A DNA stretch of 64,000 bases. Origin: a virus. Under the pieces are notes generated by a model. That model did no database searches. It was not told the origin of the DNA and was given only the letters and a program-made list of their open reading frames with translations. Below are positions 2,735-62,658 of the stretch, one piece after another. Both the position numbers and the translations under genes were made by a program. The first letter of the stretch is position 1. The number at the start of each line of letters is the position of its first letter. The DNA lies in the IMG/VR virus record IMGVR_UViG_3300045999_011735, positions 32,001-96,000 of that record; one strand, written 5' to 3'.

Positions 2735-3085
2735 TTATTTATCATATTTAACCACAAAAGTCATATCAGTATTTTGTGATAGAGGAATTGGTTGTGCCAA
2801 TTTAGCTACAGCCAATAAATCGTTTTGTTCATTATATAAACCAACTGTTGTAACATAAGGTTCAAAATAGGATGCAGTAACAAAATATTTTACTTCAGGA
2901 ATAGGAGAAGTTAATGATTGACTAAAAAATCCACTTCCACTAAATAAATTATCCTGTAATAAAGTAGGGTTGTATGACAGATTAAATTCATTATCCTTTA
3001 CATGACAAATTACGTTTTGCTCATATATAACCATTTCATTTTGAAATGATAGATTAAAACTTGGAGCTAAAGCAACTGAAGGCAT
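2735..3085 (-). CDS. Baseplate/tail structural protein, C-terminal-module paralog of 9777..10799
   Basis: VTTVGLYNEQNDLLAVAKL matches ITTVGLYNDQNELLAVAKL of the 340-aa ORF. Confidence 0.7.
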   Translation of the reverse strand: MPSVALAPSFNLSFQNEMVIYEQNVICHVKDNEFNLSYNPTLLQDNLFSGSGFFSQSLTSPIPEVKYFVTASYFEPYVTTVGLYNEQNDLLAVAKLAQPIPLSQNTDMTFVVKYDK

Positions 3086-3104
3086 AATTTAAATAATTTA
3101 TATT

Positions 3105-3845
3105 TTAAGAACATTGAGGAAAAGCATAAGCTGAAACCCAATTATAGTTTGAATCAAATTGCCACAACCCACCATTTATAAAAACATAAAGAGGGCCATC
3201 ATTACTTAATGGAAGATTTCCACCTGAGTCTGTATAGAGAGGACAAAAAACTCCAAAATTTCCAAGGTTACAAAGAGACCAAAGACTTTGAGGGTTATAA
3301 GCAGCATTGTTACATGCATCAAATGCTGTTGCTCCCCAACCACATCCTATAAATTCAGTAAAAACTAATGGTGGTGGTGATGAAGGAGTTATAGATGGTG
3401 TTCTAGTAATTGTTGGTGTTGGTGTCGGTGATTGAGAGGCACCTATAGTAGGTGATGGAGTAACAGAAAGTGTAACACTTGGAGTAACTGTTCTAGTTGG
3501 AGTAACTGTTGGTGTTAATGTTCTAGAAGGAGTTACAGTTGGAGTAACTGTGGCGCTAATACTGCGTGTTGGAGTAATTGAAGGAGTAATAGTAGGAGTT
3601 GGTGTAACTGAAAGTGATGGGGAAGGAAATGGTAATATTTCTTCATTTGCACAACCAAACGCTTCATTAGTAACTACAATAGATGATGAAGGAACACCAA
3701 GAGGAACATTTACAAGATATCCTGCCTCTAATTCAGGTCTAGTTACGTTAGAGGCATACAAGGTTTGTCCACTGCTACCTGAAAGATAGACATTAAATGG
3801 TCCTGGTGAATTTCCTTGATCATAATATATTACGTAAGTAGGCAT
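3105..3845 (-). CDS. Thr-Pro repeat virion/fibre protein with Cys-rich C-terminal domain
   Basis: Central TP[ST][IV]T repeats; C-terminal GCGWG...DAC...LYTD domain. Confidence 0.65.
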   Translation of the reverse strand: MPTYVIYYDQGNSPGPFNVYLSGSSGQTLYASNVTRPELEAGYLVNVPLGVPSSSIVVTNEAFGCANEEILPFPSPSLSVTPTPTITPSITPTRSISATVTPTVTPSRTLTPTVTPTRTVTPSVTLSVTPSPTIGASQSPTPTPTITRTPSITPSSPPPLVFTEFIGCGWGATAFDACNNAAYNPQSLWSLCNLGNFGVFCPLYTDSGGNLPLSNDGPLYVFINGGLWQFDSNYNWVSAYAFPQCS

Positions 3846-3899
3846 ATTGTTTTTATATCAATGTAATGAAAAATATTGATATCTCCACATAAATATATT

Positions 3900-6800
3900 T
3901 TAACATGGACCTATATCTAAATACACATAATAATCATAAGTACCTGATACAATAGTAATACTACAATAAGCAGATGCTGTAAATAAGTCACATTGTGAAT
4001 TACTACAACCACCAGTACCACTAACACCTGCTGCTACTTGTGCTCCACTGGCATTAGCAGCTAATTCTATAGTATCACCAACAGATACACCAAATGTTCC
4101 ACTATTAGTTACTGATTGAAATACTTCAATATTAGAATTTTTATAAATGGCCATATCTCCAGAAGTAGAATCTGTATTTGTAGTTTGCCAAATAACTTGA
4201 TAAACTGGTGTAGGAGTAATAGTTGGTGTTGGTGTTGGAGTAGCGGTTATACTAGGAGTAGGTGTTATTGATGGAGTAGCGGTTATTGATGGTGTAGGTG
4301 TTATACTTGGTGTTTGAGTTCTAGTTGGTGTAGGTGTAATAGTTGGTGTAGGTGTTACACTAGGACAAGCTCCTAATGATGTAACTATACCTCCAGTTCC
4401 AATATAACATTGACCACCAACTGAGAAATGTTTTAAAACTGTTGTTACTGTACAAGTAGCATTACTATATAATTGTTTACCTGCTGCTAGTACACCACAA
4501 GTATATACAGTTTGAGGAGAACTAGTTTGTGCACAAGCTTCAGCACAATCATTTCCCTCATAAACTACAGTTGCTGTACAATTACAAGGTGTAACAGTAG
4601 GAGTTGGTGTTAATGTTCTAGTAGGTGTAATACTAGAAGTTGGTGTAATTGTTCTAGTAGGAGTGATACTTGGAGTAGCAGTAATACTAGGTGTAGCTGT
4701 TCTAGTAGGGGTAATTGTAACAGTTGGTGTAATAGAAGCTGTTGGTGTAATACTAGGTGTTCTACTAAATGTTGGTGTTGGAGTAATAGATGGTGTTGAT
4801 GTTATTGATGGTGTTATAGTTCTAGTAGGAGTTACAGTAGGAGTAGCAGTAACAGACGGTGTAGGTGTTATACTAGGTGTAGCAGTTATACTAGGTGTAA
4901 TTGTTCGTGTTGGAGTAATACTAGGTGTAGCTGTTATAGATGGTGTAGCAGTTATACTAGGTGTAGCTGTAATTGATGGAGTTATTGTTCTAGTTGGTGT
5001 TATACTAGGAGTAGCTGTAATACTAGGTGTTGGAGTGATAGAAGGTGTTACAGTTACACTTGGTGTTACAGTTTGAGAAGGTGTAATTGTACTAGTAGGT
5101 GTAATTGATGGTGTTACTGTTACACTTGGAGTAACAGTTACAGATGGAGTTACAGTACTAGAAGGTGTAATTGTTCTAGTTGGTGTAATTGATGGAGTTA
5201 CAGTTACACTAGGTGTTATAGTAACAGTAGGAGTTACAGTTTGTGAAGGTGTAATTGTTGTAGTTGGAGTTATACTAGGTGTTATAGTAACAGATGGCGT
5301 TACTGTACTTGTAGGAGTAATACTAGGAGTAGCAGTTACTGTTACAGTTGGTGTTATACTAGGAGTAATTGTAACTGATGGTGTAATTGTACTTGTAGGA
5401 GTAATGCTCGGTGTTACAGTTATTGTAACTGATGGTGTAATAGAAGGTGTTATAGTAATACTAGGTGTAATAGTAGAAGTCGGAGTAATTGATGGAGTTA
5501 CTGTAACAGTAGGAGTAATTGATGATGTTGGGGTTATAGTAACTGTAGGGGTAATACTTGGAGTAACAGTCACACTAGGTGTAACTGTACTAGTTGGTGT
5601 TATACTTGGGGTTACAGTTACAGTTGGAGTAACCGTCACACTTGGAGTTACAGTTACAGATGGAGTAATAGTACTAGTTGGTGTAACACTTGGTGTTATA
5701 GTAACAGTTGGAGTTATACTAGATGTAGGTGTAATAGTTGGTGTTGGTGTTTCACTAGGTGTTACAGTTACACTTGGAGTAATAGTTTGAGAGGGAGTTA
5801 CAGTAATAGTTGGGGTTATAGAAGGTGTTACTGTTACTGTTGGTGTTACAGATGCTGTAGGTGTAACTGTTAAAGTAGGAGTTATACTTGGAGTCTCAGT
5901 TATACTAGGAGTTATTGTAACAGTAGGGGTTACAGTTACACTAGGAGTAACAGTAATGGTTGGAGTTGTAGATACAACAGGTGTTGCTGTTACACTAGGA
6001 GTGGGTGTTATAGTTGGAGTAATAGATGGAGTAACTGTTGATGTTGGTGTTTCACTAGGTGTTACAGTTACAGTTACAGTAGGAGTTACTGTTTCACTAG
6101 GAGTAACAGTCACTGTAGGTGTAATAGTAACACTAGGTGTTATTGAAGGGGTTTCTGTTATAGAAGGTGTAATAGTAACAGATGGGGTAACAGTCACACT
6201 TGGAGTAATAGTAGAAGTTGGAGTAATACTTGGAGTAACAGTTACACTAGGAGTTACAGTTTCCGAAGGAGTAATTGTTACACTAGGTGTTACAGTAAAA
6301 GTTGGTGTAACTGAAGGTGTTATAGTTACAGTAGGTGTAATAGTTTGAGTTGGAGTAACCGTCACACTTGGAGTAACAGTTACAGTTACAGACGGTGTTA
6401 CTGTTTCACTTGGAGTTACAGTAACAGTTGGTGTTACAGTTTCACTCGGAGTAACAGTCACACTTGGAGTTACTGTAGCTGTAGGAGTTACAGTAGGTGT
6501 AATTGTTTCAGAAGGAGTAATTGTAACAGTAGGAGTTATTGTTTGTGAAGGTGTAATTGTTGTTGTTGGTGTAATTGAAGGTGTGATTGTAACTGTAGGA
6601 GTTACAGTTTCACTTGGTGTAATTGTAACAGTAGGAGTAATATTAGGTGTTTCTGTTATAGAAGGTGTAATTGTTACAGTTGGTGTTACAGTAGGAGTAA
6701 TTGTCTCACTTGGAGTAATAGTAACTGTTGGTGTTACTGTTTGAGATGGAGTAATAGTAGTAGTAGGAGTAACACTAGGTGTTACAGTTTCACTAGGTGT

Positions 6801-8738
6801 TACAGTTACAGTAGCTGTAGGTGTTATAGAAGGTGTTACTGTTACAGACGGAGTAACAGTAGGAGTTACAGTCTCACTAGGTGTTATAGTAACTGAAGGA
6901 GTAATTGTTTGAGTTGGAGTGACAGTTGTACTTGGAGTTACAGTTACAGTAACACTTGGTGTTATAGTTGATGTAGGTGTTACAGTAGAAGTAGGAGTAA
7001 TAGTTGGTGTTTCAGTAATAGTAGGTGTAATAGTAACTGTTGGTGTTACTGTTTCACTCGGAGTTATCGTAACTGAAGGGGTAATTGTAGAAGTTGGCGT
7101 TACAGTTGGTGTAACTGTTTCACTTGGAGTAATCGTAACACTAGGAGTTATTGTTGGGGTTGTACTTGGAGTAGTAGTAACTGTAGGAGTTACAGTTACA
7201 GAAGCCTCTATAGTTGCTGATGGTGTAAAAGAAGGTGTTCTACTTACTGTATGGCTTGGTGTTACAGTGACAGTAGGAGTAACAGTTGGTGTTTCAGTTG
7301 GTGTAAGTGAAGGTGTTGATGTTATTGATGGAGTAACAGTTGCTGTAGGGGTTTCACTTGGTGTAACAGATACAGTAGGAGTAATAGTTTCACTTGGAGT
7401 GATTGTAACAGTAGGGGTTAATGTTGATGTTGGTGTTACTGTAGGAGTAATACTTTCACTCGGAGTTATTGTTACTGATGGAGTGATAGTTGTAGTAGGA
7501 GTAACAGATGGTGTTTCTGATGGTGTAACAGTAGGTGTTGGAGTTTCAGTTGCAGTAGGTGTAATCGTTGCAGTAGGTGTAATTGAAGGTGTTTCAGTTA
7601 TACTAGGAGTGATTGTAACTGTTGGTGTTACAGTTTCACTTGGAGTTATTGTAGGAGTAACAGTTATACTTGGGGTAATAGTAGATGTCGGTGTTATAGA
7701 TGGTGTTACAGTAACAGTAGGTGTTATAGTACTTGTAGGAGTAATACTAGGTGTTTCTGTAATGCTAGGTGTAATTGTTACAGTAGGTGTAATTGTTTCA
7801 CTCGGAGTGATAGTTGGTGTTGGTGTTAATGTTTGAGTTGGAGTTATAGTAGGGGTTACTGTTGCACTTGGTGTTACAGTTACTGTTGGAGTTATAGTTT
7901 GAGTTGGTGTTACAGTAGCAGTAGGTGTAATAGTAGGTGTTATAGTTTCACTCGGTGTGATTGTTACTGTTGGCGTTATAGTAACTGATGGTGTAACAGT
8001 TGCTGTTGGAGTTATTGTTGTTGCTACAGTACTTGTAGGAGTAACTGTAGGAGTAATAGTTTCACTTGGAGTTATAGTAACTGATGGTGTAATAGTTTGA
8101 GTTGGAGTAATACTTGGAGTAACAGTTACACTTGGAGTTACTGTTTGAGATGGTGTAACAGTTACACTTGGAGTTACAGTTTCACTAGGTGTAATTGTAA
8201 CTGTAGGAGTTATAGTTTCACTAGGAGTAATAGTTCTAGTTGGTGTAATAGTTGGTGTTGTACTAGGAGTTACAGTTACTGTTGGAGTTATAGTAGAGGT
8301 AACAGTAGCTGTAGGTGTTATAGACGGTGTTATTGTTTTAGTAGGAGTTATAGTAACCGATGGAGTAACAGTTGCGGTAGGAGTAATAGTTGAAGCTACA
8401 GTTGCTGTAGGAGTAACTGAAAGGGTTTTTGTTATGGTAGGAGTTATAGAAGGAGTTCTAGTGATACTTGGAGTAATACTAGGTGTTGCAGTTACTGTTA
8501 CAGTAGGTGTAGGTGTAAAAGTTGGAGGAGGAGTAAATAATATAAGTGTATTACTTTGAAAAAAAGGATCAACCGCTTGTATATAAGCAGCATATGTTGC
8601 TGAAGGAACAGGAGCATAAGAAGCAGATCCACTTGAGTTATTAGCATATATAATGACATCCTGCAAACCAGTTTCATAATACTGGTCTACATAAAGCACT
8701 GAAGCTGTAACATCAAATGAAGCTGAAGTGTATCCCAT
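3900..8738 (-). CDS. Giant mucin-like Thr-Pro repeat protein (1612 aa), probable virion appendage
   Basis: Uninterrupted 4.8-kb ORF; about 1300 aa of TP[ST][IV]T[IV] units; two Cys-containing terminal domains; inside the structural block; no signal peptide. Confidence 0.75.
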   Translation of the reverse strand: MGYTSASFDVTASVLYVDQYYETGLQDVIIYANNSSGSASYAPVPSATYAAYIQAVDPFFQSNTLILFTPPPTFTPTPTVTVTATPSITPSITRTPSITPTITKTLSVTPTATVASTITPTATVTPSVTITPTKTITPSITPTATVTSTITPTVTVTPSTTPTITPTRTITPSETITPTVTITPSETVTPSVTVTPSQTVTPSVTVTPSITPTQTITPSVTITPSETITPTVTPTSTVATTITPTATVTPSVTITPTVTITPSETITPTITPTATVTPTQTITPTVTVTPSATVTPTITPTQTLTPTPTITPSETITPTVTITPSITETPSITPTSTITPTVTVTPSITPTSTITPSITVTPTITPSETVTPTVTITPSITETPSITPTATITPTATETPTPTVTPSETPSVTPTTTITPSVTITPSESITPTVTPTSTLTPTVTITPSETITPTVSVTPSETPTATVTPSITSTPSLTPTETPTVTPTVTVTPSHTVSRTPSFTPSATIEASVTVTPTVTTTPSTTPTITPSVTITPSETVTPTVTPTSTITPSVTITPSETVTPTVTITPTITETPTITPTSTVTPTSTITPSVTVTVTPSTTVTPTQTITPSVTITPSETVTPTVTPSVTVTPSITPTATVTVTPSETVTPSVTPTTTITPSQTVTPTVTITPSETITPTVTPTVTITPSITETPNITPTVTITPSETVTPTVTITPSITPTTTITPSQTITPTVTITPSETITPTVTPTATVTPSVTVTPSETVTPTVTVTPSETVTPSVTVTVTPSVTVTPTQTITPTVTITPSVTPTFTVTPSVTITPSETVTPSVTVTPSITPTSTITPSVTVTPSVTITPSITETPSITPSVTITPTVTVTPSETVTPTVTVTVTPSETPTSTVTPSITPTITPTPSVTATPVVSTTPTITVTPSVTVTPTVTITPSITETPSITPTLTVTPTASVTPTVTVTPSITPTITVTPSQTITPSVTVTPSETPTPTITPTSSITPTVTITPSVTPTSTITPSVTVTPSVTVTPTVTVTPSITPTSTVTPSVTVTPSITPTVTITPTSSITPTVTVTPSITPTSTITPSITITPSITPSVTITVTPSITPTSTITPSVTITPSITPTVTVTATPSITPTSTVTPSVTITPSITPTTTITPSQTVTPTVTITPSVTVTPSITPTRTITPSSTVTPSVTVTPSVTVTPSITPTSTITPSQTVTPSVTVTPSITPTPSITATPSITPTRTITPSITATPSITATPSITATPSITPTRTITPSITATPSITPTPSVTATPTVTPTRTITPSITSTPSITPTPTFSRTPSITPTASITPTVTITPTRTATPSITATPSITPTRTITPTSSITPTRTLTPTPTVTPCNCTATVVYEGNDCAEACAQTSSPQTVYTCGVLAAGKQLYSNATCTVTTVLKHFSVGGQCYIGTGGIVTSLGACPSVTPTPTITPTPTRTQTPSITPTPSITATPSITPTPSITATPTPTPTITPTPVYQVIWQTTNTDSTSGDMAIYKNSNIEVFQSVTNSGTFGVSVGDTIELAANASGAQVAAGVSGTGGCSNSQCDLFTASAYCSITIVSGTYDYYVYLDIGPC
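4211..8530. repeat. Degenerate coding tandem repeat (Thr-Pro units)
   Basis: + strand recurring GG(T/A)GT(T/A)A(C/T)(A/T)GT-type 12-24 bp units with third positions varied; interrupted by a Cys domain at about 4365-4587. Confidence 0.9.
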
Positions 8739-8753
8739 TTTCTTTTTTCTTTT

Positions 8754-9755
8754 TTATGGTGCTAATTGAGTAAATTCTACAACCAATTCACCACTTCCAC
8801 TTACTAAAGGAGAAGCTAATATAATTAATGATGGTTCTCCTATAGACATTTCAAATTCACAATTTGGATCTAATACATTAACTCTTATCTTTCCTAAGTT
8901 ACTTGTTAATGGATTACAATATGATCCTGTAACTTGGAATGTATAGAAGGTTTCATAAACACCTACTCCAAGCCCACTAAAGGACATTGTTACTGTATTA
9001 TTAGAACCTGTGCTAAAGAATTGTATATCTCCTCCTGATAGTTGTATTGATTGATTTATAAGGATATTTCCATTTAAAACATCATTGGCTAATGGAGATA
9101 TTGAAATACTAACAGGGTTTCCATAATCACTTCTTGTAATAGTAACAACATCATCGTAAGCAATAGGAGTTAATGGGAATATTCCTTGATAATCTTGATT
9201 TGTAAGTACTACAATACCTTCTGGGTAGAAAATATTTCCTGAATGGGTTGTGTAATTATCATATATATTTCCTTTACCATCATCTGTAAGGTTATATGTA
9301 GATGAAGTCATTTGGAAACTGTATGGTAATATTCTTTCACCATAAATTTTAGGGGATATAGAAAGCACTTTAATAGATTCTCCAACACCAGTTGGAAAAT
9401 TGCTAATAAATGCTGGGTCGTTGTTGAAATCAAAATATGAGCGAGATGCTCTTAATCCTGTAGGATTTCCACTATAATAAATTGAGGAAGCAAGAGAAGC
9501 AGTTGATAGATATAAATTATCTCCGTATTCATGATAAAACATTTGGTTTATCATGTCATACATTAATCTATCATATTGTCCATTTGTAATAGGTTCTCCA
9601 CCTGGGTCGAAAGTACCTGTTATATAAGTACCATTGTATATGTCGACATAAGGATCATCTACTGGTAAAGGACAATAGTTAAAATTCCATTGCTTGTTAG
9701 CTATAACAGGTACTGTTATAACATCTGAAGACTTTAACTTTTTGAATGATCCCAT
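8754..9755 (-). CDS. Baseplate/tail structural protein (N-terminal-module paralog of 9777..10799) with Ig/cadherin-like extension
   Basis: YGERILPYSF...LTDDGKGN...GNIFYPEGIVVLT parallels YKEHIQPGSM...LTDDS...GYLFPDNDIIIL; PIAYDD...ISPLAND resembles an Ig-like repeat start. Confidence 0.6.
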   Translation of the reverse strand: MGSFKKLKSSDVITVPVIANKQWNFNYCPLPVDDPYVDIYNGTYITGTFDPGGEPITNGQYDRLMYDMINQMFYHEYGDNLYLSTASLASSIYYSGNPTGLRASRSYFDFNNDPAFISNFPTGVGESIKVLSISPKIYGERILPYSFQMTSSTYNLTDDGKGNIYDNYTTHSGNIFYPEGIVVLTNQDYQGIFPLTPIAYDDVVTITRSDYGNPVSISISPLANDVLNGNILINQSIQLSGGDIQFFSTGSNNTVTMSFSGLGVGVYETFYTFQVTGSYCNPLTSNLGKIRVNVLDPNCEFEMSIGEPSLIILASPLVSGSGELVVEFTQLAP

Positions 9756-9776: not shown

Positions 9777-10799
9777 TTAGTAGTCTAATTTAACTTTAAT
9801 TAAGGCTTCCTTAGTAAAATCTTTAACTAATGGTCTACTTAATTTAGCAACCGCTAATAATTCATTTTGGTCGTTATATAAACCAACTGTTGTAATGAAT
9901 GTTTGTGGATTGTTAATTAACGTGGTGTAAATTAAATTACCATTACTATCTATGATTGAAGGGTTTGTTGTATAATTAAAGTCTTGGTTTTTAACTCTTG
10001 TAAAGAAATAATGTGATGATACATCTTCAGCTGATTGTAGAGCAAAATAAGCACTAGATGACATTGCTGTATAAAATTGAAACTGAATGTTACTATCAGT
10101 TCCAGGAGCAGCTACAGCTGGATTAAAGTTGATACCACCATTTGCTTGAGACTTAGATAATGCTGTTGGATTTAAAATGATAATATCATTATCTGGGAAC
10201 AAATATCCATAAATAGAAGCTGAAGCAGCAGCTGTATATTGTGTGCCACCACTACCACTAATTAAATTATAATATAATAAACCATTAGTTGTATAGTTAG
10301 TAGTAGAAGTAATTTGACTATCATCAGTTAAAGATATTTCGTAAGTAGTATTCTTTAATTTTAATGTCATAGAACCAGGTTGGATATGTTCCTTATATCT
10401 ATTTCTAGCTACGTTAATAACATATATACCATTTGGATTATCATTACCAAATTCAAAACTTCCACTTTCTGTCCCCAATAACAATGTTCTATATTGGCCA
10501 TAAACTACCCTAGTAGGTGTTATAGCAGAACCATCTGGTAAATTTGTAGTTACTGATGGGCTTATGTAATTGGAACCACTTCCGTATTTGTTGCCGTATT
10601 GTACGGCCATTTGTATAGAGGAAGAAGTAGAAGTTAAAGCACCTGGGTATTCACTATATACATTTAAATAGAATGAACTGGTGATTACACTAGAAGTAAA
10701 GAAAGTAGATAATACATTAGTATCACCACTCCACATTGGACGTACTACTGTTTCCGTACTTACTACTGAATCTTCTGGGTTATATCTTACGAATGACAT
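9777..10799 (-). CDS. Baseplate/tail structural protein
   Basis: S/T/N-rich beta protein; FNYTTNPS and TTVGLYN...LLAVAKL; structural context. Confidence 0.7.
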   Translation of the reverse strand: MSFVRYNPEDSVVSTETVVRPMWSGDTNVLSTFFTSSVITSSFYLNVYSEYPGALTSTSSSIQMAVQYGNKYGSGSNYISPSVTTNLPDGSAITPTRVVYGQYRTLLLGTESGSFEFGNDNPNGIYVINVARNRYKEHIQPGSMTLKLKNTTYEISLTDDSQITSTTNYTTNGLLYYNLISGSGGTQYTAAASASIYGYLFPDNDIIILNPTALSKSQANGGINFNPAVAAPGTDSNIQFQFYTAMSSSAYFALQSAEDVSSHYFFTRVKNQDFNYTTNPSIIDSNGNLIYTTLINNPQTFITTVGLYNDQNELLAVAKLSRPLVKDFTKEALIKVKLDY

Positions 10800-11473: not shown

Positions 11474-11521
11474 TCTTTTAATGTATTTTGATTATAAATA
11501 TTTAATTCTTGTGGATCTAGA

Positions 11522-45664: not shown

Positions 45665-45669
45665 ATCTG

Positions 45670-45743: not shown

Positions 45744-45781
45744 ATTCATGAATTAAAGATACAAATTTTATTTTAGGTTTC

Positions 45782-45813
45782 AAAAAAAAAGCCTTGACTT
45801 TTCAGCCAAGGCT
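45782..45813 (-). terminator. Intrinsic terminator after the lipoprotein gene
   Basis: AGCCTTGG-N8-TCAAGGCT followed by T8. Confidence 0.85.
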
Positions 45814-45835
45814 CTTTAGTGCTTTGATCTGTAGA

Positions 45836-46009: not shown

Positions 46010-46086
46010 CTTTTTTCGTTTTTGTTAAAAAATTTAAGCGACCATAAATATATGGTTACTTATTTGGGTTTCCAAATTTAATTTAG

Positions 46087-51250: not shown

Positions 51251-51253
51251 TTA

Positions 51254-51952: not shown

Positions 51953-51957
51953 GTTTT

Positions 51958-54594: not shown

Positions 54595-55874
54595 TTGAAT
54601 TTCTTTAAAACGTCTTCAATGTATCCAAATACAGGTTCACGATAATGAGGAGCAGCTCCAACAAAGAATACTTTATCAAGTACCTTATTTGCTTCAGGGT
54701 ATTTTTTATAATCATCTAAAAATTCAAATCCAGGATGCATTAATATATTTCCTGCGAAGTAATTTCTAGTTTGTATTTTATTATCTTCTAGATGTTGTAC
54801 TAATCTATGTTTTAATCCTTCTTCTTCACATATGATTGGAGTTCCAAACCAACATGGTTCTGCTTTATCTAATGTTTGAGGTACTCTTACATTTGGAATA
54901 TATTTTAAAAATATTGATTCAATTACATCTTTAGAAAGTCTTCTATTTTTTTCTATTTCTTCAAATTTATCTAATTGAGCTAATCCAATAGCACCTTGCA
55001 AATCTAATGGTTTTAAATTAAATCCCATATTTGCAAACACGTATTTGTGATCAATTATACCATCATAATTTTCAAGCCATTTATCAAATCTGTTTCCACA
55101 AGTACCACATGATAATAAATTAGCTGATCCTACACAATAGCAATCTCTACCCCACCATGAAAAACTTACAAATAATGATTTTAATTTGTCATCATTAGTA
55201 CAAACCATCCCACCTTCACCTGTTGAAATGTGGTGTGCTGGGTAGAATGAGTTTGAATGTGCTATATAATAATCTGTTAAGAGTAACCCTCCCCACTTGC
55301 TTCCTAAGCTGTCACAGTTGTCACCTATCAACTTGAGATCATACTTATTTGCTAATTCTACTAGCTTATCAAAGTCGGGAGGATTACCTAGTACAGGAGA
55401 AACAAATATACCTTTTGTTTTTGGTGTAATTTTTTCTTCAATTTTATTTACATCAAAGTTTAAAGTATCCCATTCAATATCTACAAATACAGGTTTTAAT
55501 CTATTTTGATAAATTACAGATACTGTTGTTGCAAATCCAACAGGCGACACGATTAATTCATCATCGTCTTGCCAATTGAATCGTTTTTTAAGAGCAGCAA
55601 TCAATACTAAGTTAGCAGATGAACCTGAGTTCACCATGTGAGCATGCTTTTGATTGAATTTCTTTGCAAATCTGCTCTCAAATTTATGTACTTTTTCTCC
55701 TGCTACAATCCACTTTCCATTTAAGAAAGCATCCATAGCAGCTACTATCTCATTACTATCCCAGTAAGGACCTGAATAATATACTGGTGTTTTGCCAGGT
55801 TCAAAATGGTCATTATAAATGTATTTTGGAACATGGTTTCCAGCTAATGCTTGTATGTTTGATAATTCTATCAT
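54591..55874 (-). CDS. rfbH: NDP-4-keto-6-deoxyglucose 3-dehydrase (RfbH/DdhC E1-like)
   Basis: VNSGSSANL, DNCDSLGS, SFYPAHHISTGEGG (His in place of the PLP Lys), WGRDCYC...CGTC Fe-S motif, DHKY. Confidence 0.85.
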   Translation of the reverse strand: MIELSNIQALAGNHVPKYIYNDHFEPGKTPVYYSGPYWDSNEIVAAMDAFLNGKWIVAGEKVHKFESRFAKKFNQKHAHMVNSGSSANLVLIAALKKRFNWQDDDELIVSPVGFATTVSVIYQNRLKPVFVDIEWDTLNFDVNKIEEKITPKTKGIFVSPVLGNPPDFDKLVELANKYDLKLIGDNCDSLGSKWGGLLLTDYYIAHSNSFYPAHHISTGEGGMVCTNDDKLKSLFVSFSWWGRDCYCVGSANLLSCGTCGNRFDKWLENYDGIIDHKYVFANMGFNLKPLDLQGAIGLAQLDKFEEIEKNRRLSKDVIESIFLKYIPNVRVPQTLDKAEPCWFGTPIICEEEGLKHRLVQHLEDNKIQTRNYFAGNILMHPGFEFLDDYKKYPEANKVLDKVFFVGAAPHYREPVFGYIEDVLKKFK

Positions 55875-56539
55875 TTATATATTTTTTCCCAATCAATTAC
55901 TGGTGCAAGCCATTCTACTTCACAATGTGTTGATAAACTAGGTATTGGAGCTAAAACGCTTCTTCCTTTATATGCTGATAAATGTTCAAATCGGCCTCTA
56001 TCACTTGGATTGCTAGTATGAATATCAAAGTCTTCATTAATTATTCTTTTAGATACTAATACACTACCTGTACTACTTGGAACTGTTTTCCAATGGTGTG
56101 TTTTAGTAGGAAGAATATATGAAGTTAATCCAGGATAGTGGTTTGGATTGTAAAAATCAGGATGATCATATAACGTTACATAATCAATATCTTCATAAGT
56201 ACTAAATAGTTCTTTTGCTTTAAAGGGCCATTCAGGTCTAAATGCATAGTCATTTTCAGCAAAGTATACTATATCGTCATCATTTAGATTTAAATTTTTA
56301 GCATAATTCCAAGTATAAAGATATGAAGCCCAATCAGATCCTCCCTTAAAAACCTCAGTACAATGTATTCTAGAATCATTAATTTGGCAATCACCATCAA
56401 ACATTAAGTGGAATTTAACAAAGTCTAATCCATCTATTGTTGATAATATATTATTTAAACTTTTTTCATATGAAAACCAGCTAGGTCTGTTTTTACCAAA
56501 CCCACTGTGATTAGTATGTCTATAAAGTATGTGTATCAT
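55871..56539 (-). CDS. Putative GT-A glycosyltransferase
   Basis: VYFAENDY, YVTLYDHPD, PIPSLSTH. Confidence 0.6.
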   Translation of the reverse strand: MIHILYRHTNHSGFGKNRPSWFSYEKSLNNILSTIDGLDFVKFHLMFDGDCQINDSRIHCTEVFKGGSDWASYLYTWNYAKNLNLNDDDIVYFAENDYAFRPEWPFKAKELFSTYEDIDYVTLYDHPDFYNPNHYPGLTSYILPTKTHHWKTVPSSTGSVLVSKRIINEDFDIHTSNPSDRGRFEHLSAYKGRSVLAPIPSLSTHCEVEWLAPVIDWEKIYK

Positions 56540-57123
56540 TTTATTCTTTTTGCAGGTACACCAACATATATACCCGATTCTATAAGATCTGTTACTACAG
56601 CCGCATTTGCTCCTATAGTAATAGATTCATTAATTATTAATTTTTCTCTTATAGAAGCATTGTTTCCCATATACACTTTATCTTGAATTTTAACATTACC
56701 TGATACTATAGAACCAGGCATTGCGCTAAAATAGTCTCTAATTATACAATCATGTCCAATATGAACTGCTCTGTTCAATATTGCATGATCTCCTATTTCT
56801 ATATTATATGTTAATACACAATTAGCTCCTATAAAAGAGCCTTGTCCTATATTAACATAAGATAATACTAATGCCGATGGGTGAATATATGAAAAATATT
56901 TTGTGTTTCCAGGGAGTTTATTAAACATTTCAGATCTATCTTGAGGTTTTGCTATTGCTATCATTACCTCATATTCTGTAGGGTCAAATTCAGATAATGG
57001 AAATATATAATCGTTGTTTTCTTTCCAGTATTTATCATCTACAAAGCACTTCATTGTAAAATCTCCAATGTGTGCTCTTACTTCTTGAGCGTGTCCTCCA
57101 GCGCCTATTAATGCTCTTTTCAT
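56536..57123 (-). CDS. Sugar acetyltransferase (NeuD/PglD-like hexapeptide)
   Basis: IGAGGHA, IHPSA, IGHD, GVPAK. Confidence 0.9.
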   Translation of the reverse strand: MKRALIGAGGHAQEVRAHIGDFTMKCFVDDKYWKENNDYIFPLSEFDPTEYEVMIAIAKPQDRSEMFNKLPGNTKYFSYIHPSALVLSYVNIGQGSFIGANCVLTYNIEIGDHAILNRAVHIGHDCIIRDYFSAMPGSIVSGNVKIQDKVYMGNNASIREKLIINESITIGANAAVVTDLIESGIYVGVPAKRIK

Positions 57124-57747
57124 TTAACTTTTATTTTGGTAGTACCAACAGTTATCATTATTAAAGACCTTTAAATTATTCTCATTAGCATAATCATGCA
57201 CTGCTCTACGTACAGTTTCCCATGTATAATCATCTCCGATTATATTTGCGTTTGGCCATAATTTATGAGTAATTTTAATATCATGTAAAACAGAATCATA
57301 ATCATGGTGCGCATCTATATAGACTAAATCAAAAGGAATATTCATTTTACCTAATATTTCTAAACCTTCTACTGTTTTAGCTCTAAGTGGGGTTAAATGG
57401 TGTTTATGATCCCACATATTAACTAAAAACGTTTCCCACAATACACTAATTTGAGGCCATAATTCTTTTACTTGTTCGATACCAAATTCTTCTTGGACAT
57501 AATCGTTCATATCTTTACTCCAATGATCTATACACACTATATGAGCATCTGGGGCGTTTTCTGCTATGAATTTTGTTGAACCTGCTCCTGTCCAACTTCC
57601 CATTTCTAGAATATATTTAGGTTTTAAATCTCTTATTACTGATTTTAGTATGTGGTGGTTTCCTATTCCAAACCAATTATGGCTATCTTTATTAATATTT
57701 GGTTTTTCACTAGGCCATTGAAACAGAGATTCTATTCGTTCTTTCAT
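57124..57747 (-). CDS. SAM-dependent methyltransferase, Methyltransf_24-like
   Basis: LEMGSWTG, CIDHW, DLVYIDAHHDY, GDDY. Confidence 0.85.
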   Translation of the reverse strand: MKERIESLFQWPSEKPNINKDSHNWFGIGNHHILKSVIRDLKPKYILEMGSWTGAGSTKFIAENAPDAHIVCIDHWSKDMNDYVQEEFGIEQVKELWPQISVLWETFLVNMWDHKHHLTPLRAKTVEGLEILGKMNIPFDLVYIDAHHDYDSVLHDIKITHKLWPNANIIGDDYTWETVRRAVHDYANENNLKVFNNDNCWYYQNKS

Positions 57748-58373
57748 TGTTTATAGATGTCAAATTTAGATAAATCTGGATATGGTAATTCTAAATCAGT
57801 ATTGTGCTTTTTGGTTCCATCTATATTATAGAATTGATTCATTAATAGTAATCCTCTAGCTGCTAACTCAGGCATCATATAGAAATTCCATCCTAGCATA
57901 TCAAAATTATCATCATGATATGAACATTCTCTTCTACCACTATATCTTGCTCTTTTAAACCAGTGATATGCTTCTAAACTGTCAGTTAAGATAGCTCCAC
58001 CTTTACTTAATTTAAAATGCTTATAAGGACCTGTAAATGAAACACACATATGAGTTCCTGGTTTGTACATGTCTGCTGTAAAGCATAAAGCACTGTCCCA
58101 AACATTAGTAGGTGCTAATTGATAAGCTCCTTTTAATGTTTTACCTTCTACAGGTGTAAATTTTACTTTAGCACCAGCATGAATAATTTCACAAGGTACA
58201 GATGGGTATGTACGAGCAGGGATTGTTACTTCTTTTCCTTTAACATTTTCAAACATTAAAGCCAAGAATAAAGCATTACTTTGGTTATCTACAGTTACTA
58301 CGTAAGGAGCACCTGTATAGTCAGCTAGTGCTTTTTCGAAATCTTCTGTTATTTTATAAATACCATTTGCCAT
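57744..58373 (-). CDS. Short DegT/DnrJ-family PLP aminotransferase
   Basis: FEKALADYTG, WDSA, SFTGPYKH...GGAILT, GWNFYM. Confidence 0.8.
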   Translation of the reverse strand: MANGIYKITEDFEKALADYTGAPYVVTVDNQSNALFLALMFENVKGKEVTIPARTYPSVPCEIIHAGAKVKFTPVEGKTLKGAYQLAPTNVWDSALCFTADMYKPGTHMCVSFTGPYKHFKLSKGGAILTDSLEAYHWFKRARYSGRRECSYHDDNFDMLGWNFYMMPELAARGLLLMNQFYNIDGTKKHNTDLELPYPDLSKFDIYKQ

Positions 58374-58376
58374 AAT

Positions 58377-59003
58377 CTATATTTTTTCGTAAAAAGCATT
58401 TTGTTTTTCTTGACGCTCAATTGTTTTAGAATGTACTAATTCATATCCTTTAGGTAAATTAGCTATTGTTTTCCAACCTGCAAGACGCTCGTGTACTTTG
58501 TTAATCCACGTTATTTCCTTTTTATTAGCGCATATACGTGTTTGGAAATCAGGATAATTAACCCACCCATTATCATCTACAAACCATCTCCATTTATCAA
58601 TGTGATCACGAGTTAATCCTTCGACAGTATTAATTCTAGGTACGGCGATTAGATCTACTAAATCTTTATTCATGTCTAATATACCATGAATATTTTCAGC
58701 TAATCCATCACTTAGATATTCATCTGCATCAATAAAGAATACCCAATCACGTGTACAGTGGTTTTTAACATTATTTTTAAATGATGCAAAGTCACCATTT
58801 AGTGAAGCGAATATTCTATGATATTCAAAAGATTGTCCAACATTATATTTGTTGGCTACTTTTTTAACCTCGTCTGTAGCAGTTGAATCTAATTGAACCA
58901 TTATTTCATCACCTGGTTTGATGATGGTTACTAGTTGATCTAGTAAACGCTCTAGTTCAACATGTTCATTCCATGCTGTAATTGCAAAACTAATTGTAGA
59001 CAT
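58377..59003 (-). CDS. Glycosyltransferase family 2
   Basis: ITAWNE, DFASFKN, IDADE, PDFQTR, VHE. Confidence 0.88.
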   Translation of the reverse strand: MSTISFAITAWNEHVELERLLDQLVTIIKPGDEIMVQLDSTATDEVKKVANKYNVGQSFEYHRIFASLNGDFASFKNNVKNHCTRDWVFFIDADEYLSDGLAENIHGILDMNKDLVDLIAVPRINTVEGLTRDHIDKWRWFVDDNGWVNYPDFQTRICANKKEITWINKVHERLAGWKTIANLPKGYELVHSKTIERQEKQNAFYEKI

Positions 59004-59006
59004 AAC

Positions 59007-59252
59007 TTAGTCATTTAATAACTCTTTTTTAGATTCATTAGATACTGAATTTGTATCTGTTGATACCCACTGTTTATATTTTTCAGCAGCACTTAGTAAG
59101 GTTTCATTTGGTTCATAGTCATAATAGATAACATCATCATTTACTTCTTTGATTTTTTCCTTTAACATGTCCCATTGAGCTGGGGTTATGTTATGATGAT
59201 GTGCTCCTTCCATGAATCCTTTAAACCAAATTACAAAGTCTCTACTTGTCAT
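59007..59252 (-). CDS. Hypothetical protein
   Basis: FVIWFKGF...QWDMLKEK. Confidence 0.55.
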   Translation of the reverse strand: MTSRDFVIWFKGFMEGAHHHNITPAQWDMLKEKIKEVNDDVIYYDYEPNETLLSAAEKYKQWVSTDTNSVSNESKKELLND

Positions 59253-59680
59253 AACGAATTTAATTTTAAAATAGCAGATGCAAATGATTCTCTTGGAAAA
59301 TGTTCCATTAAACTCATATCAATTCTATGAGTTTGATTTTTTGGAAAACGTGCTTTTTCCTCTTCTTTAATTGGTACTAATGGAGCAACTGTCCATTTCC
59401 AAGCATCTTTATTACTTCCATTTGGAAATAATATACCTTTTTCAGCTATATTGATTGTACTTGGATACCATACGAATCCATCTTTATCTACTATTTCTAA
59501 ATCTTTAATTAGTTCTGGGAGTGATTCTTTTGCATTTGTTACAAAGTCGCTGTCCTGTACCATGTGTGAAGTGCTTCCGTATCCACAATTAAAACACATC
59601 CATTGAATGAATTGTTCATGATGATACTCATAACACATTTCAGCGTCACAACATGGACACTTAATTAAATTGTCAGTCAT
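59249..59680 (-). CDS. Zn-ribbon hypothetical protein
   Basis: CPCC...CFNCGY. Confidence 0.6.
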   Translation of the reverse strand: MTDNLIKCPCCDAEMCYEYHHEQFIQWMCFNCGYGSTSHMVQDSDFVTNAKESLPELIKDLEIVDKDGFVWYPSTINIAEKGILFPNGSNKDAWKWTVAPLVPIKEEEKARFPKNQTHRIDMSLMEHFPRESFASAILKLNSL

Positions 59681-59703
59681 AATATAAAGGTATAAACTAT
59701 ATT

Positions 59704-59889
59704 TTAGAATCCAAACAACTTCTTAATTTTATCTAATAAAGATGTTTTTATTTCAACATCACGATTAGATACAAATGGAGTTGTTTCTGGAGCAAGAACT
59801 GGAAGTTCAACATTCTTTTTCTTTGATGTTGGTTTCTTTGCAGTTGTTGCTTTTTTAGTTGTTACCTTTTTTGTGGTTTTCTTTTCCAT
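59704..59889 (-). CDS. Small Lys/Thr-rich protein with amphipathic C-terminus
   Basis: KKTTKK repeats; LLDKIKKLFGF. Confidence 0.55.
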   Translation of the reverse strand: MEKKTTKKVTTKKATTAKKPTSKKKNVELPVLAPETTPFVSNRDVEIKTSLLDKIKKLFGF

Positions 59890-59917
59890 GATTGATTTGT
59901 TTGTATATAAATATAGA

Positions 59918-61219
59918 TTATTGTTCTATCTTTTTAAGTTTAGGCAACTTAAGTTCAACTTGTTTTGGAAATTCAGGAGTATACTTTTTAAGTAATTCGT
60001 CTAACACCTCAACCATTTTGTCAAATGAGAAATTTTGTTTATTTCTGTATGCGAGGCGTTTTGCTTTTTCTTGATATTCTTTATAGTTGGTAAATACATC
60101 CATTAAAGCATGTCCTGATTGGTTATCATCAGGTTTGAACCACATTGATTCAGCCAATATTGTATTAGCAACAGCCGCACTTGGGTGTACTTGATTTAAT
60201 GTACCTCCTACTAAGCCACAGAGTTCAGAATTTAAGAAATCTAAATGCCCACTCCATCCACTAGCAATAATTGGTTTTCCAATAACACTAAATTCAAGTA
60301 ACGGGCGTCCAAATCCTTCACCTTTAGTAAAGGACACCATTGCTTTTACTTTTGGGTGGTTGTATATGCAATTTACTTCATCATCACTCAAATCACCATG
60401 GATTAAGTAGATATTAGGTATATCTTTTGAATTTACTGTTTTTCTAATATCATCTATCTTCTTCAAAATATTGTCTCTATCTATAATTGAAGGAGCACCT
60501 TGTGATACTTTTAAAATTAGTCCTGGTTTGTTTTTCTTTCCTTTAAATACTTCAAGGAATGCTTTAATCATGTATCCAACATTCTTTCTATCTTCAGCAT
60601 AGTCACCTTGCAACCAGTGCCCTACAAATAAGTAACAGAATTCTTCTTTAATTGTATTTAAATCATCATAAATGTCAAAATCAACAATATCGTCCGATTT
60701 AAAATATTTATTTAAATCAGCACCTTCAAATAATATTTCAAGTGGTTTTTTTAATTCAATTACGTTTACTAATTGACCATTTGGTGCTTTCTGTTCAAAT
60801 TTACTACTTTGAAATACTTTTTTAGAATGATCAGATGATACTAAATTTAGAGTCATTCTATTACAACCTTCAATCCAACTAGGATCGCATGTTGTAGTTT
60901 CAATACCTGCTGTAACACCAATATTGAATTTACCTAATGGTTGAAATTCATTTGGTACTGTAATTTGGATCCATACTTCAGGTTGTTTAGGAACACTCAT
61001 TGTTAGTTTTCCAATGATTCTATTTTTCAAATCTTCTTCTTCAGCAATGTTTGTATCTAAAGCACCGAATGGTGTTTGTCCCCATCTTTGAGATAATATT
61101 TTAATATCCCATTCTTCACCTTTAATTTTGATAAGTGATTTTACAAAATCACGAGATCTAGCTCCGTATCCACTATACGTGTCAATAGGGCAACTTACTA
61201 TACAAAGTGGTTTACTCAT
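59918..61219 (-). CDS. Glycosyltransferase family 4 (GT-B)
   Basis: SGYG, DRKN, KGEGFGRPLLE...KPIIASGWSGHLDF. Confidence 0.9.
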   Translation of the reverse strand: MSKPLCIVSCPIDTYSGYGARSRDFVKSLIKIKGEEWDIKILSQRWGQTPFGALDTNIAEEEDLKNRIIGKLTMSVPKQPEVWIQITVPNEFQPLGKFNIGVTAGIETTTCDPSWIEGCNRMTLNLVSSDHSKKVFQSSKFEQKAPNGQLVNVIELKKPLEILFEGADLNKYFKSDDIVDFDIYDDLNTIKEEFCYLFVGHWLQGDYAEDRKNVGYMIKAFLEVFKGKKNKPGLILKVSQGAPSIIDRDNILKKIDDIRKTVNSKDIPNIYLIHGDLSDDEVNCIYNHPKVKAMVSFTKGEGFGRPLLEFSVIGKPIIASGWSGHLDFLNSELCGLVGGTLNQVHPSAAVANTILAESMWFKPDDNQSGHALMDVFTNYKEYQEKAKRLAYRNKQNFSFDKMVEVLDELLKKYTPEFPKQVELKLPKLKKIEQ

Positions 61220-62658
61220 AACGAAATTACAGTTTTATTTTGTTTTGCAGGTAATTCTTCAATTTTTATAAAATTATAACATTCTCTAGGCTCCCATTTT
61301 TCAAGAGTTTTATCAATATATTTGATAACATTTTTAGCCATATTTTTAGATGTCATCATTGCTTCATCTGATGTAACCCATTTACGAGCGGCTTCTCCTC
61401 TACGTTTACGTTCATCAGAACTTAATTCATATAGTGCTTTTATTTGAGCAGCTGCATCTCTAAAATCAGCTCTATCATCAAAGATATAAGGTGTTGGGAC
61501 TGAACCTACAAGAGATAAATTTGATGGAAATACTGGGAAGGCCCATTCACCACATTTTTTATATTTTCCAAAATGGTTTGATCCAAATTCTTCAGTGAAT
61601 TTAATCCATTCACCATTTTCATCTTCAAAGCGCATTTGGTCTTGCATACCACCAGTTACGTTGGCAATGATTGGTTTTCCACACATCATAGCTTCAGTTA
61701 AACTTAATCCCCATCCTTCATTCGATGAAATCAAAATACAAGCATCCATTGAATTGTATAGTAAATTCATTTGTTCAGGAACAAATCTATTTAATCCTGT
61801 AATTAATACATTTGGAGGATTTTTACCCCAAATCATTTCAATTACAGCAGGAATATCTGTTCCGTTTTCATCTACAGGGTGTGTATGAGCTATAAATGCT
61901 ACTTTATCTTTTTTATCTTCTGGAAGTTGGTCTACAAATAATTTCCAAGCTAATAGTACATCTGGGAATGATTTGCGTCTAATGTTTCTAGAGTTAAATC
62001 CTAAAACAAAGTCAAATTCTTTTTTTCCAAATATGTTCTTTTTAAACTCTTCAAGTTCTTTTCCTTTATCTGTTCCTTCCTGAATAGGGAAGAATACATC
62101 TTCATTTATACCATGAGGCACATATCCTATTACTTTGTCTTTGGCTTTATCACCTAACACAGCATGATTTAAGTTTTCAGTCTGTTTAGAAATAGCTAAT
62201 AAACCATCACATGATTCGTAATATGGTCTGTTGTAAAGTGGATAAGGCAATGAATCCCAAATGTTCAAATAAATAATTGGAACTTGAGAACGTATCTCTC
62301 TTTCATGCATCCACAACCAAATCCAATAACGTGGATCTGTAAACAACATGATTGCGTCTGGTTTTTCAACTTCAAGTAATGCTCTAATGGCTTCAATAGT
62401 TCCATATCCAGAACTAGGGTATAATGTTACTTGAGCATCTTCAATTCCATTAAATTTATTTGCATCTGCACTTAAATCTAATTTTTTACCTTCGTCTGGG
62501 TGTTTGATTGTACTACCTAAATTTATCCAATTGTAGTAATGGCAGGTACCTAAAATCATTTCCCTTGCCATAGTTGCAATACCAGAAGTTGTTCTGATAT
62601 CATCTGATAATAGTAAAATCTTTTTACGTTGTGCTTGTGGAATGTAACCTTCTTTCAT
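61216..62658 (-). CDS. Glycosyltransferase family 4 (GT-B)
   Basis: SG.A, VPHGI, RNIRRK, NEGWGLSLTEAMMCGKP. Confidence 0.9.
   Translation of the reverse strand: MKEGYIPQAQRKKILLLSDDIRTTSGIATMAREMILGTCHYYNWINLGSTIKHPDEGKKLDLSADANKFNGIEDAQVTLYPSSGYGTIEAIRALLEVEKPDAIMLFTDPRYWIWLWMHEREIRSQVPIIYLNIWDSLPYPLYNRPYYESCDGLLAISKQTENLNHAVLGDKAKDKVIGYVPHGINEDVFFPIQEGTDKGKELEEFKKNIFGKKEFDFVLGFNSRNIRRKSFPDVLLAWKLFVDQLPEDKKDKVAFIAHTHPVDENGTDIPAVIEMIWGKNPPNVLITGLNRFVPEQMNLLYNSMDACILISSNEGWGLSLTEAMMCGKPIIANVTGGMQDQMRFEDENGEWIKFTEEFGSNHFGKYKKCGEWAFPVFPSNLSLVGSVPTPYIFDDRADFRDAAAQIKALYELSSDERKRRGEAARKWVTSDEAMMTSKNMAKNVIKYIDKTLEKWEPRECYNFIKIEELPAKQNKTVISL

Follow-up and report, generated by a model that had tools for sequence, protein, structure and literature searches.

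Giant viruses such as the chloroviruses and Mimivirus encode soluble glycosyltransferases (GTs) and enzymes for deoxy, amino, acetylated and methylated sugars, by which the glycans of their capsids or fibrils are made. Among phages, glycosylation of the virion has so far been shown in few systems. In mycobacteriophages, GTs of the phage act on its own virion proteins, in the cytoplasm and without a lipid carrier, and the C-termini of the capsid and tail tube subunits carry glycans (Freeman et al. 2023, Cell Host Microbe, as cited in PMC12619734). Mucin-type O-glycans are started in T. cruzi and Dictyostelium by enzymes of family GT60, which form N-acetylglucosamine (GlcNAc)-alpha-O-Thr on mucin-like proteins (PMC9472816, PMC8724618). 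Here we consider a stretch of 64,000 nucleotides (the window), bases 32001-96000 of the 114,996-bp IMG/VR record IMGVR_UViG_3300045999_011735, a genome (G000) that is about 67% complete by CheckV. Two of its gene systems point to glycosylation of the virion: a 13-kb island of sugar genes at 49459-62658 of the window, and a gene for a Thr/Pro-repeat, mucin-like protein that appears to be partnered by an operon with two GT60 homologues beyond the window.

A first-pass annotation had joined the island and the Thr-Pro protein into one O-glycosylation system. From comparison with relatives we arrive instead, with even confidence, at two separable cytoplasmic systems: GT60 enzymes that would act on a mucin-like fibre, and a core island whose acceptor is probably part of the virion. 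The island and the mucin-like protein are, on this reading, not to be scored as one system.

Set beside the mycobacteriophages, as these are described where PMC12619734 cites them, the present genome differs by a hypervariable island with its own enzymes for nucleoside diphosphate (NDP) sugars and by a GT60 system apart from it, whose substrate would be a giant repeat protein. The two GT4 enzymes at the core of the island have their nearest match in the PDB in a chlorovirus protein, B736L of NY-2A (3oy2); the similarity is low (E 2e-9 for the first, GT4a, and 4.5e-3 for the second, GT4b), and the hosts and virion types of giant viruses are different. With the protist GT60 enzymes of CAZy (TcOGNT1/2 of T. 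cruzi, pp-alphaGlcNAcT of Dictyostelium, Skp1 Gnt1) the phage pair shares the family PF11397, with scores well over the cut-off, the DxH motif and an association with Thr/Pro-rich mucin-like acceptors. Unlike them, the phage enzymes have no membrane anchor, are encoded by a virus of bacteria, and stand as a tandem pair with a carbamoyltransferase. On the phage side, the comparisons with mycobacteriophages and protists are of genes and sequences.

A conserved GT4 pair followed by a hypervariable sugar cassette

G000, from an uncultured freshwater phage, is a T4-like myovirus by PHROGs and Pfam, which recognise baseplate wedge proteins, portal, large terminase and major head protein, and also a family-B DNA polymerase, clamp loader, GroEL-like chaperonin, primase and exonuclease. 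Its G+C content is 32%, and all genes of any size in the record lie on the minus strand. The closest named phage is Flavobacterium phage vB_FspM_immuto (immuto), with a nucleotide identity of only about 67%, over the baseplate. Four whole relatives were mapped protein by protein: G001 (174 kb) and G011 (170 kb), both with terminal repeats, and the incomplete G006 (160 kb, 94% complete) and G005 (139 kb, 84% complete). The fibre slot of twelve further records and the entire immuto genome were also compared; among the other relatives, G019 (183 kb) is complete.

The island enzymes were identified with Pfam and NCBIfam profiles. In the direction of transcription, the genes of the island and its two edges are the following.

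62676-62879, minus strand: 67-residue protein before GT4a; 49-94% identity in all four whole relatives; ribbon-helix-helix-like by eye, a predicted fold
61216-62658, minus strand: GT4a, core glycosyltransferase of 480 residues; PF00534, 47.7 bits (cut-off 26.4)
59918-61219, minus strand: GT4b, core glycosyltransferase of 433 residues; PF00534, 22.8 bits, under the cut-off of 26.4
59249-59680, minus strand: Cys-rich protein of 143 residues; no family match; 27-86% identity in relatives
58377-59003, minus strand: GT2 glycosyltransferase; PF00535, E 1.1e-8
57744-58373, minus strand: 209-residue protein with a match to the N-terminal part of DegT aminotransferases only; PF01041, residues 7-80
57124-57747, minus strand: methyltransferase (Methyltransf_24, Pfam)
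56536-57123, minus strand: sugar N-acetyltransferase of the NeuD/PglB/VioB family (NeuD/PglD); TIGR03570, 163.4 bits against a cut-off of 160.8
55871-56539, minus strand: 222-residue protein; no family match
54591-55874, minus strand: NDP-4-keto-6-deoxyhexose 3-dehydrase of E1/RfbH type; RfbH-like, E 8e-106; Yersinia E1 (3bcx), E 3.5e-71
53884-54594, minus strand: short RmlD-like NAD(P)-dependent reductase; PF04321, E 1.3e-22, first half of the model only
53264-53887, minus strand: sugar-phosphate nucleotidyltransferase, a weak match with all scores under the curated cut-offs
52689-53267, minus strand: CmcI/rhamnosyl O-methyltransferase-like protein; PF04989, 26.6 bits
51958-52689, minus strand: weak DUF707 match, which we take to be a GT-A fold; PF05212, 24.6 bits
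51254-51952, minus strand: class I S-adenosylmethionine-dependent methyltransferase; PF13489, E 2.2e-14
50357-51250, minus strand: GT2 glycosyltransferase; PF00535, E 1.9e-11
49459-50391, minus strand: GT2 glycosyltransferase; PF00535, E 3.7e-9
49081-49455, minus strand: conserved protein of 124 residues that borders the variable island downstream; identity 54-87% in each of the four whole relatives

Both GT4 enzymes keep the EX7E motif (E314/E322 in GT4a, E301/E309 in GT4b), each in at least 95% of 22 orthologues. Because the motif is present in both, neither is a dead partner of the other, and the analogy of tandem GT4 enzymes with the GtfA/GtfB pair of serine-rich repeat proteins was rejected; GtfA (4pqg) is matched at E 0.98 only. 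The RfbH-like protein, when aligned with 3bcx and with its H220K mutant 3bb8, has His at the position of the pyridoxal phosphate-binding lysine (SFYPAHHI) and the Cys motif WGRDCYC..C of the Fe-S cluster, and for these two reasons it is predicted to be a 3-dehydrase rather than an aminotransferase; it scores below the equivalog level (NF011936, 354 bits against a cut-off of 423). Neither an E3-like reductase nor a 4,6-dehydratase was recognised by Pfam and NCBIfam among the island proteins. The short DegT-like protein keeps its length in G001 (94% identity) and in G006 (84%), a similar short gene is found in immuto, and it looks like a conserved short protein and not like a pseudogene. The gene for the NeuD/PglD-type acetyltransferase follows it directly in G006 and immuto, and comes two genes later in G000 and G001. 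A very Lys-rich protein of 61 residues (59704-59889), with a homologue only in G001, heads the island's second part.

All enzyme classes that the first-pass annotation had listed for the island are thereby found, with two amendments: its four or five GT2/GT-A enzymes become three GT2 enzymes and the weak DUF707 match, and its aminotransferase is only an N-terminal piece. The capacity for deoxy, amino and methylated sugars is, as before, predicted from the 3-dehydrase, N-acetyltransferase and methyltransferase matches. The enzymes had also been described as soluble, with no gene for flippase, polymerase or lipid carrier in the window, and this description extends beyond the window: no 19-residue segment reaches a Kyte-Doolittle value of 1.6 in any protein of the island or of the GT60 operon, and no polytopic Wzx/Wzy/WecA-like open reading frame (ORF), nor any ORF with more than three hydrophobic segments, occurs in the 115 kb of G000 or in the complete 174-kb G001.

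The island is headed by the promoter-like motif ATATTTAT, which is the most enriched intergenic 8-mer of the genome, with 36 copies on the coding strand vs 1 on the other (whole-genome count), mostly 13-25 nt ahead of an ATG. Four copies are of concern here.

62897-62904, minus strand: promoter-like ATATTTAT motif heading the island
59907-59914, minus strand: second ATATTTAT motif, inside the island
11494-11501, minus strand: ATATTTAT motif heading the operon of p220, p340, N333 and the Thr/Pro gene
3889-3896, minus strand: ATATTTAT motif before the second Thr-Pro gene

The motif stands before the baseplate, fibre, portal and head operons, and in 21 of 22 related loci a copy lies no more than 420 nt ahead of GT4a. 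The first-pass annotation was exact about the two positions in the island and right that the motif is shared with baseplate genes, and its claim that the island lies behind a promoter type of structural operons is borne out for the baseplate, portal and fibre operons. A looser class of promoter-like motif, TTTG..TA[TC]ATTTA[AT] with an A-rich leader and 'GTTATG' behind it, precedes many small genes (26000-33000); it differs from ATATTTAT in its last base and in the upstream TTTG.

The GT4 pair and its neighbour, a PD-(D/E)XK nuclease, are present in all four whole relatives with 55-84% identity (GT4b, 55-80%), and GT4a occurs on at least 596 IMG/VR contigs, as many as the portal protein. In immuto the gene order is annotated in the same way, as nuclease, GT4, GT4 and further sugar genes. 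Microcystis phage Mel-JY01, on which a full-text literature search returned no paper, has the GT4 pair at 41% identity, with an additional gene separating the nuclease from the first GT4, and GT4a alone matches a protein of Rhodothermus phage RM378 at about 31%. A GT4 pair with a sugar cassette is present in every relative examined, and the cassette after the pair is different in every genome. The pair is present in 100% of 22 loci whose flanks are complete; 55-77% of these loci share the upstream genes, and no more than 15-18% the genes 4-12 kb downstream (231 genes in 106 families). The island is found throughout the lineage, with a core GT4 pair and a hypervariable sugar cassette.

Variability of this kind is also that of O-antigen and capsule clusters (Wzx/Wzy; the 3,6-dideoxyhexose loci of Yersinia and Salmonella), with which the island shares the E1 3-dehydrase of the 3,6-dideoxy pathway, GT2 and GT4 enzymes and methyltransferases. 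The island could accordingly be read as remodelling the surface glycans of the host (lipopolysaccharide (LPS), capsule or S-layer) via lipid-linked intermediates, for instance to block superinfection or to reduce re-adsorption to debris. The GT2 and GT4 enzymes of ordinary O-antigen pathways are normally soluble too, so that solubility is weak evidence against a lipid-linked acceptor. Unlike the host clusters, the island has no initiating transferase, flippase, polymerase or chain-length regulator, and no recognised E3 or 4,6-dehydratase; neither the 115 kb of G000 nor the complete G001 encodes an initiating phosphoglycosyltransferase, a flippase or a polymerase. The island has a conserved GT4 pair as its anchor, and the phage that carries it is of T4-like, presumably lytic type, with no sign of lysogeny in the 115 kb of G000. 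The pair recurs in a cyanobacterial phage and GT4a in a Rhodothermus phage; the envelopes of these hosts differ, and this speaks for an acceptor which the phage brings with it. Host remodelling is unlikely on these grounds, though it deserves to be kept in mind.

A GT60 operon that co-occurs with the Thr-Pro genes

The second system begins 7.9 kb past the end of the window, where six genes at genome positions 103876-112492 (L008:8876-17492) form an operon just upstream of the DNA polymerase, again headed by ATATTTAT. They encode two PF11397 proteins, two proteins without family match, a carbamoyltransferase of NodU/CmcH type and an 802-residue fusion of methyltransferase and HtrL-like parts.

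L008:16209-17492: PF11397 protein; 236.6 bits against a cut-off of 21; E 7e-70
L008:14917-16209: PF11397 protein; 183.1 bits against a cut-off of 21; E 1e-53

The residues D100-S-H102, which form the DxH motif that binds metal in the GT-A enzymes of GT27 and GT60, and H237 are invariant in 27 phage homologues, and by analogy with those enzymes are presumably catalytic. The pair are homologues of the GT60 polypeptide GlcNAc-transferases, which take GlcNAc from UDP-GlcNAc and place it on Thr or Hyp; for the phage pair, donor, linkage and activity are predictions. A full-text literature search found no paper linking GT60 to phages. In bacterial genomes an alignment-based scan gave 138 GT60 matches and a single-sequence scan none; a Thr-Pro ORF lies near 10 of 61 bacterial GT60 loci, a purely descriptive figure.

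Consider now how the Thr-Pro genes are distributed. A 300-residue piece of the repeat, used as HMMER query, found the repeats of G001 (E 1e-55) and missed the tracts of PTPT/TATA type in G005, and Thr-Pro ORFs were therefore called by a composition detector. Thr-Pro and GT60 genes are both present in G000 and G001, and both absent from G011, G006, G019, G020 and immuto. When the more distant GT60-bearing records G017, G036, G039, G037 and G035 are added to the table, seven records have both, five have neither, one (G005) has Thr-Pro genes only, and none has GT60 only (Fisher p = 0.005 for this 7/1/0/5 table, with relatedness ignored). In G039 the order is N333-TP, TP, GT60a, TP, GT60b, carbamoyltransferase, methyltransferase fusion, C116, where TP denotes a Thr-Pro gene and N333 and C116 are parts of the fibre slot described below; the GT60 enzymes are thus embedded among their presumed substrates.

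The island behaves differently. It is present in the complete genomes of G011, G019 and immuto, and in the nearly complete G006, all without a Thr-Pro ORF. A Thr-Pro ORF is found within 10 kb at 11 of 25 viral GT60 loci vs none of 30 GT4 loci of at least 15 kb. From the table of relatives and the 30 GT4 loci it follows that the GT60 operon tracks the Thr-Pro protein and that the island does not. When the co-occurrence of sugar locus and Thr-Pro repeats is followed through the relatives, as the first-pass annotation had proposed, it fails for the island and is found for the GT60 operon instead, and the claim that the 13-kb island serves the Thr-Pro protein is not upheld. What survives, by way of an operon outside the window, is the broader idea behind it: judged by the GT60 association in the table and in G039, the Thr-Pro protein is very probably O-glycosylated in the cytoplasm.

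That the island itself starts and builds O-glycans on the Thr-Pro protein is for the same reasons improbable, even though both are present in one genome behind the same class of promoter, every island enzyme is soluble, and the island could plausibly extend GlcNAc primers.

Two observations touch the GT60 genes. The cultured jumbo phage XacN1 of Xanthomonas (L329) has a GT60 homologue with 40% identity (region of ORF334, ORF333 and ORF325) and a carbamoyltransferase directly next to it, in the order seen in the G000 operon and in G039; 9 kb away lies a 3,313-residue ORF with a Pro/Thr/Ser linker. Xoo-sp13, another cultured Xanthomonas phage, likewise has GT60 and a carbamoyltransferase. Directly upstream of the operon of G000 stands a gene for a 545-residue protein that starts MSDVKISQLPSA.. 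(L008:17601-19238, genome 112601-114238), with an N-terminus that is tail-fibre-like by eye.

The Thr-Pro protein and its slot

The putative substrate is encoded in a slot with the conserved order p220, p340, N333, [Thr-Pro genes], C116, HNH-like gene, primase.

9777-10799, minus strand: p340, conserved protein of the fibre module; its C-terminus resembles C116
8754-9755, minus strand: N333; its first approximately 190 residues are the N-part of a single gene of about 310 residues in relatives without Thr-Pro genes
3900-8738, minus strand: Thr/Pro-repeat (mucin-like) protein of 1,612 residues, with an N-domain of about 67 residues, the repeat, and two small Cys-containing C-terminal domains
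3105-3845, minus strand: second Thr/Pro-linker protein, 246 residues; N-domain kept in G001, G002, G003 and G017
2735-3085, minus strand: C116, corresponding to the C-terminal domain of the single gene of about 310 residues in relatives without Thr-Pro genes

The long protein has approximately 1,320 residues of repeat with the unit T-P-[ST]-x-T-[VI] and 256 TP dipeptides. Residues 68-1395, 1,328 in all, contain 530 T, 157 S and 243 P, which is a mucin-like composition. In the DNA, where matches amount to 62-87%, the repeats are degenerate and old. The protein has neither a signal peptide nor a transmembrane segment, and the earlier description of a signal-less protein with about 1300 residues of Thr-Pro in the structural block stands, the block being here the tail-fibre slot. 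The sequon of periplasmic O-glycosylation in Bacteroidota is D-[ST]-[AILVMT]. In the Thr-Pro protein this sequon occurs only twice, both times in the C-terminal domain, which together with the missing signal peptide is not what a target of the general O-glycosylation system of Bacteroidota should look like.

Where a relative has no Thr-Pro genes, a single ORF of about 310-340 residues comprises both the N333-like part and the C116-like part (e.g., G011 L104:2491-3423; G006 L115:6958-7902). In relatives with Thr-Pro genes the C-domain is an ORF of its own, of about 100-120 residues, one to four Thr-Pro genes lie between the parts, and the N333 domain and the Thr-Pro repeat make up one fused protein in G002 and G003. 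The same slot of immuto carries genes annotated as tail fibre and tail spike, on account of which the Thr-Pro protein is called a virion fibre here, and the slot behaves as a receptor-binding (tail fibre or spike) cassette site, to judge from gene order. An AlphaFold2 model of the fused N+C slot protein of G011, from an alignment of 16 sequences, reached a predicted local distance difference test (pLDDT) score of 49, too poor for a fold search, so that synteny and the annotation of immuto are what speaks for a virion role of the slot.

N333 ends with a TAA that is in frame with the start codon ATG of the Thr-Pro gene, five codons away, in an A-rich stretch (8736-8756), and in G001 a TAA likewise separates the N-domain from the repeat. 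Stop-codon readthrough from N333 into the Thr-Pro gene was considered and rejected: no suppressor tRNA is present, and the matching junction of G001 has three stops. The arrangement is probably the split of a once-fused gene and not recoding.

It is also conceivable that the Thr-Pro repeat is an unglycosylated spacer, either a rigid stalk of polyproline II or beta-solenoid type or a linker like the PT-box of cellulases, and that the GT60 operon serves another target. Pro/Thr linkers without known glycosylation are found in many bacterial proteins. An AlphaFold2 model of residues 1-330 from the single sequence places short regular strands in the repeat at pLDDT 47, a value that does not tell a disordered tract from a solenoid, and in G005 Thr-Pro proteins occur without a detected GT60. 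These last are of another style, in which PTPTPT/TATATA linkers join repeated small domains with four Cys (L122:9872-11707, L120:3354-4580), and proteins like the 1,612-residue one are found only in GT60-bearing relatives. The tight match in presence and absence between GT60 and Thr-Pro genes, their interleaving in G039, and the fact that known GT60 acceptors are Thr-rich mucin-like tracts together make an unglycosylated spacer a poor prospect.

DNA as acceptor of the island

Soluble phage GTs near replication genes are also known from phages of T-even type, where they glycosylate DNA at 5-hydroxymethylcytosine (5hmC), 5-hydroxycytosine (5hoC) or 5-hydroxymethyluracil (5hmU), and the island could be thought to make hypermodified bases against restriction. 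Its place among replication genes, next to the PD-(D/E)XK nuclease, would fit, an arms race would account for the hypervariability, and phage DNA glycosyltransferases and DNA glycans are diverse (Pyle 2024, as cited in PMC12619734). All known glycosylated pyrimidines, however, begin from a viral ThyA homologue (PMC13326640), and a profile search found no PF00303 (ThyA) in G000, in the complete G001 or in the complete G011, all of which carry the island. In G019, G006, G036 and immuto PF00303 is present, so that ThyA does not track the island. In immuto, analysis of virion DNA by liquid chromatography with ultraviolet detection and tandem mass spectrometry gave canonical dA, dC and dT and one new nucleoside, fdPreQ1, in place of dG, and no glycosylated base (bioRxiv 10.1101/2023.04.13.536721). 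Sugars on DNA, which the first-pass annotation had named as an outcome that would count against virion glycosylation, are in other words not what the published mass spectrometry of this cultured, island-bearing relative reveals.

DNA is an unlikely acceptor, and a role of the island in shielding DNA from restriction is the least credible reading of all, given the missing ThyA-family hydroxylase or hydroxymethylase in three island-bearing genomes, the ThyX of G000 that suggests ordinary dTMP synthesis, the sugar-free nucleosides of immuto, and a number of island transferases and methyltransferases larger than known DNA systems with mono- to trisaccharides would need.

The type of thymidylate synthase varies within the clade: G000 has ThyX (41881-42531), G019, G006, G036 and immuto a long gene of the ThyA family, and G001 and G011 neither. 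A candidate for DpdA and the 7-deazaguanine pathway in G000 (37792-38583) turned out to be DUF932, and PF01702 was not found; a search for Tet/JBP gave no match anywhere, controls included, and is uninformative.

Discussion

The evidence can be joined into the following scheme. What has been observed are the genes and their synteny, the solubility of the products, the class of promoter and the patterns of co-occurrence; the enzymatic steps, the acceptors and the late timing are predicted from these. In the island, two catalytically intact GT4 enzymes stand behind a promoter of late type and a small conserved gene. After them comes a hypervariable cassette with GT2 enzymes and methyltransferases, three of each, and with an E1-type 3-dehydrase, a reductase, a nucleotidyltransferase and an N-acetyltransferase. 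With these the phage may build a strain-specific oligosaccharide of deoxy, amino and methylated sugars, bringing no lipid carrier, flippase or polymerase itself, and attach it to an acceptor of its own, most probably one virion protein or several. Independently, the Thr residues of the 1,612-residue fibre in the tail-fibre/spike slot would be primed with GlcNAc by the two soluble transferases of the GT60 family, acting together with the co-encoded carbamoyltransferase and the methyltransferase/HtrL-like fusion. The island may extend the glycans of the fibre, and would be neither required for them nor specific to them.

Several points weigh against this scheme. It is read from genes. The acceptor of the island has been reached by exclusion; the island lies among replication genes beside a nuclease and away from the structural genes, and its soluble GT2 and GT4 enzymes could act on undecaprenyl-linked intermediates of the host, with the host's flippase. 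Since ATATTTAT also stands ahead of non-structural genes (PhoH, the tRNA region, some small genes), late expression of its class is a suggestion only. As regards the fibre, the co-occurrence sample is small and consists in part of close relatives, G005 has Thr-Pro proteins and no GT60 was found in its 139 kb, and the repeat could fold as a beta-solenoid instead of being a disordered mucin.

A wider generalisation, of which we are more doubtful, is that throughout an aquatic T4-like clade with hosts from Flavobacteria to Microcystis the GT4-anchored island may give each strain a virion 'serotype', to which a subset of the phages may add GT60 and carbamoylation on Thr/Pro fibres of 1,000-2,000 residues in the receptor-binding slot. 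Such fibres, if extended, would be several hundred nanometres long. If the island does decorate virions, then phages would diversify a surface glycan as their hosts do, and this would matter for adsorption, for sticking to mucus or particles, for grazing and for recognition by the host's defences. The pairing of GT60 with Thr-Pro proteins, if it holds, would extend mucin-type O-glycosylation, known from eukaryotes, to the viruses of bacteria, and would provide soluble enzymes for making mucin-like glycoproteins in bacteria. The clade is abundant in lakes and has immuto as a cultured member, which makes the question directly testable.

Other features of the genome

Six tRNA genes (Leu-taa, Arg-tct, Met, Gln-ttg, Glu-ttc and Pro-tgg) lie in the window at 45107-46470, in a region that also holds a gene for tmRNA with the tag DEMSTMTFDDLMAFVGADYAVAA. 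Outside the window, at L007:3668-5053 (genome 21668-23053), an unusually well-conserved protein of 461 residues resembling FAD/NAD-binding oxidoreductases is encoded, with 73-77% identity in all four whole relatives.

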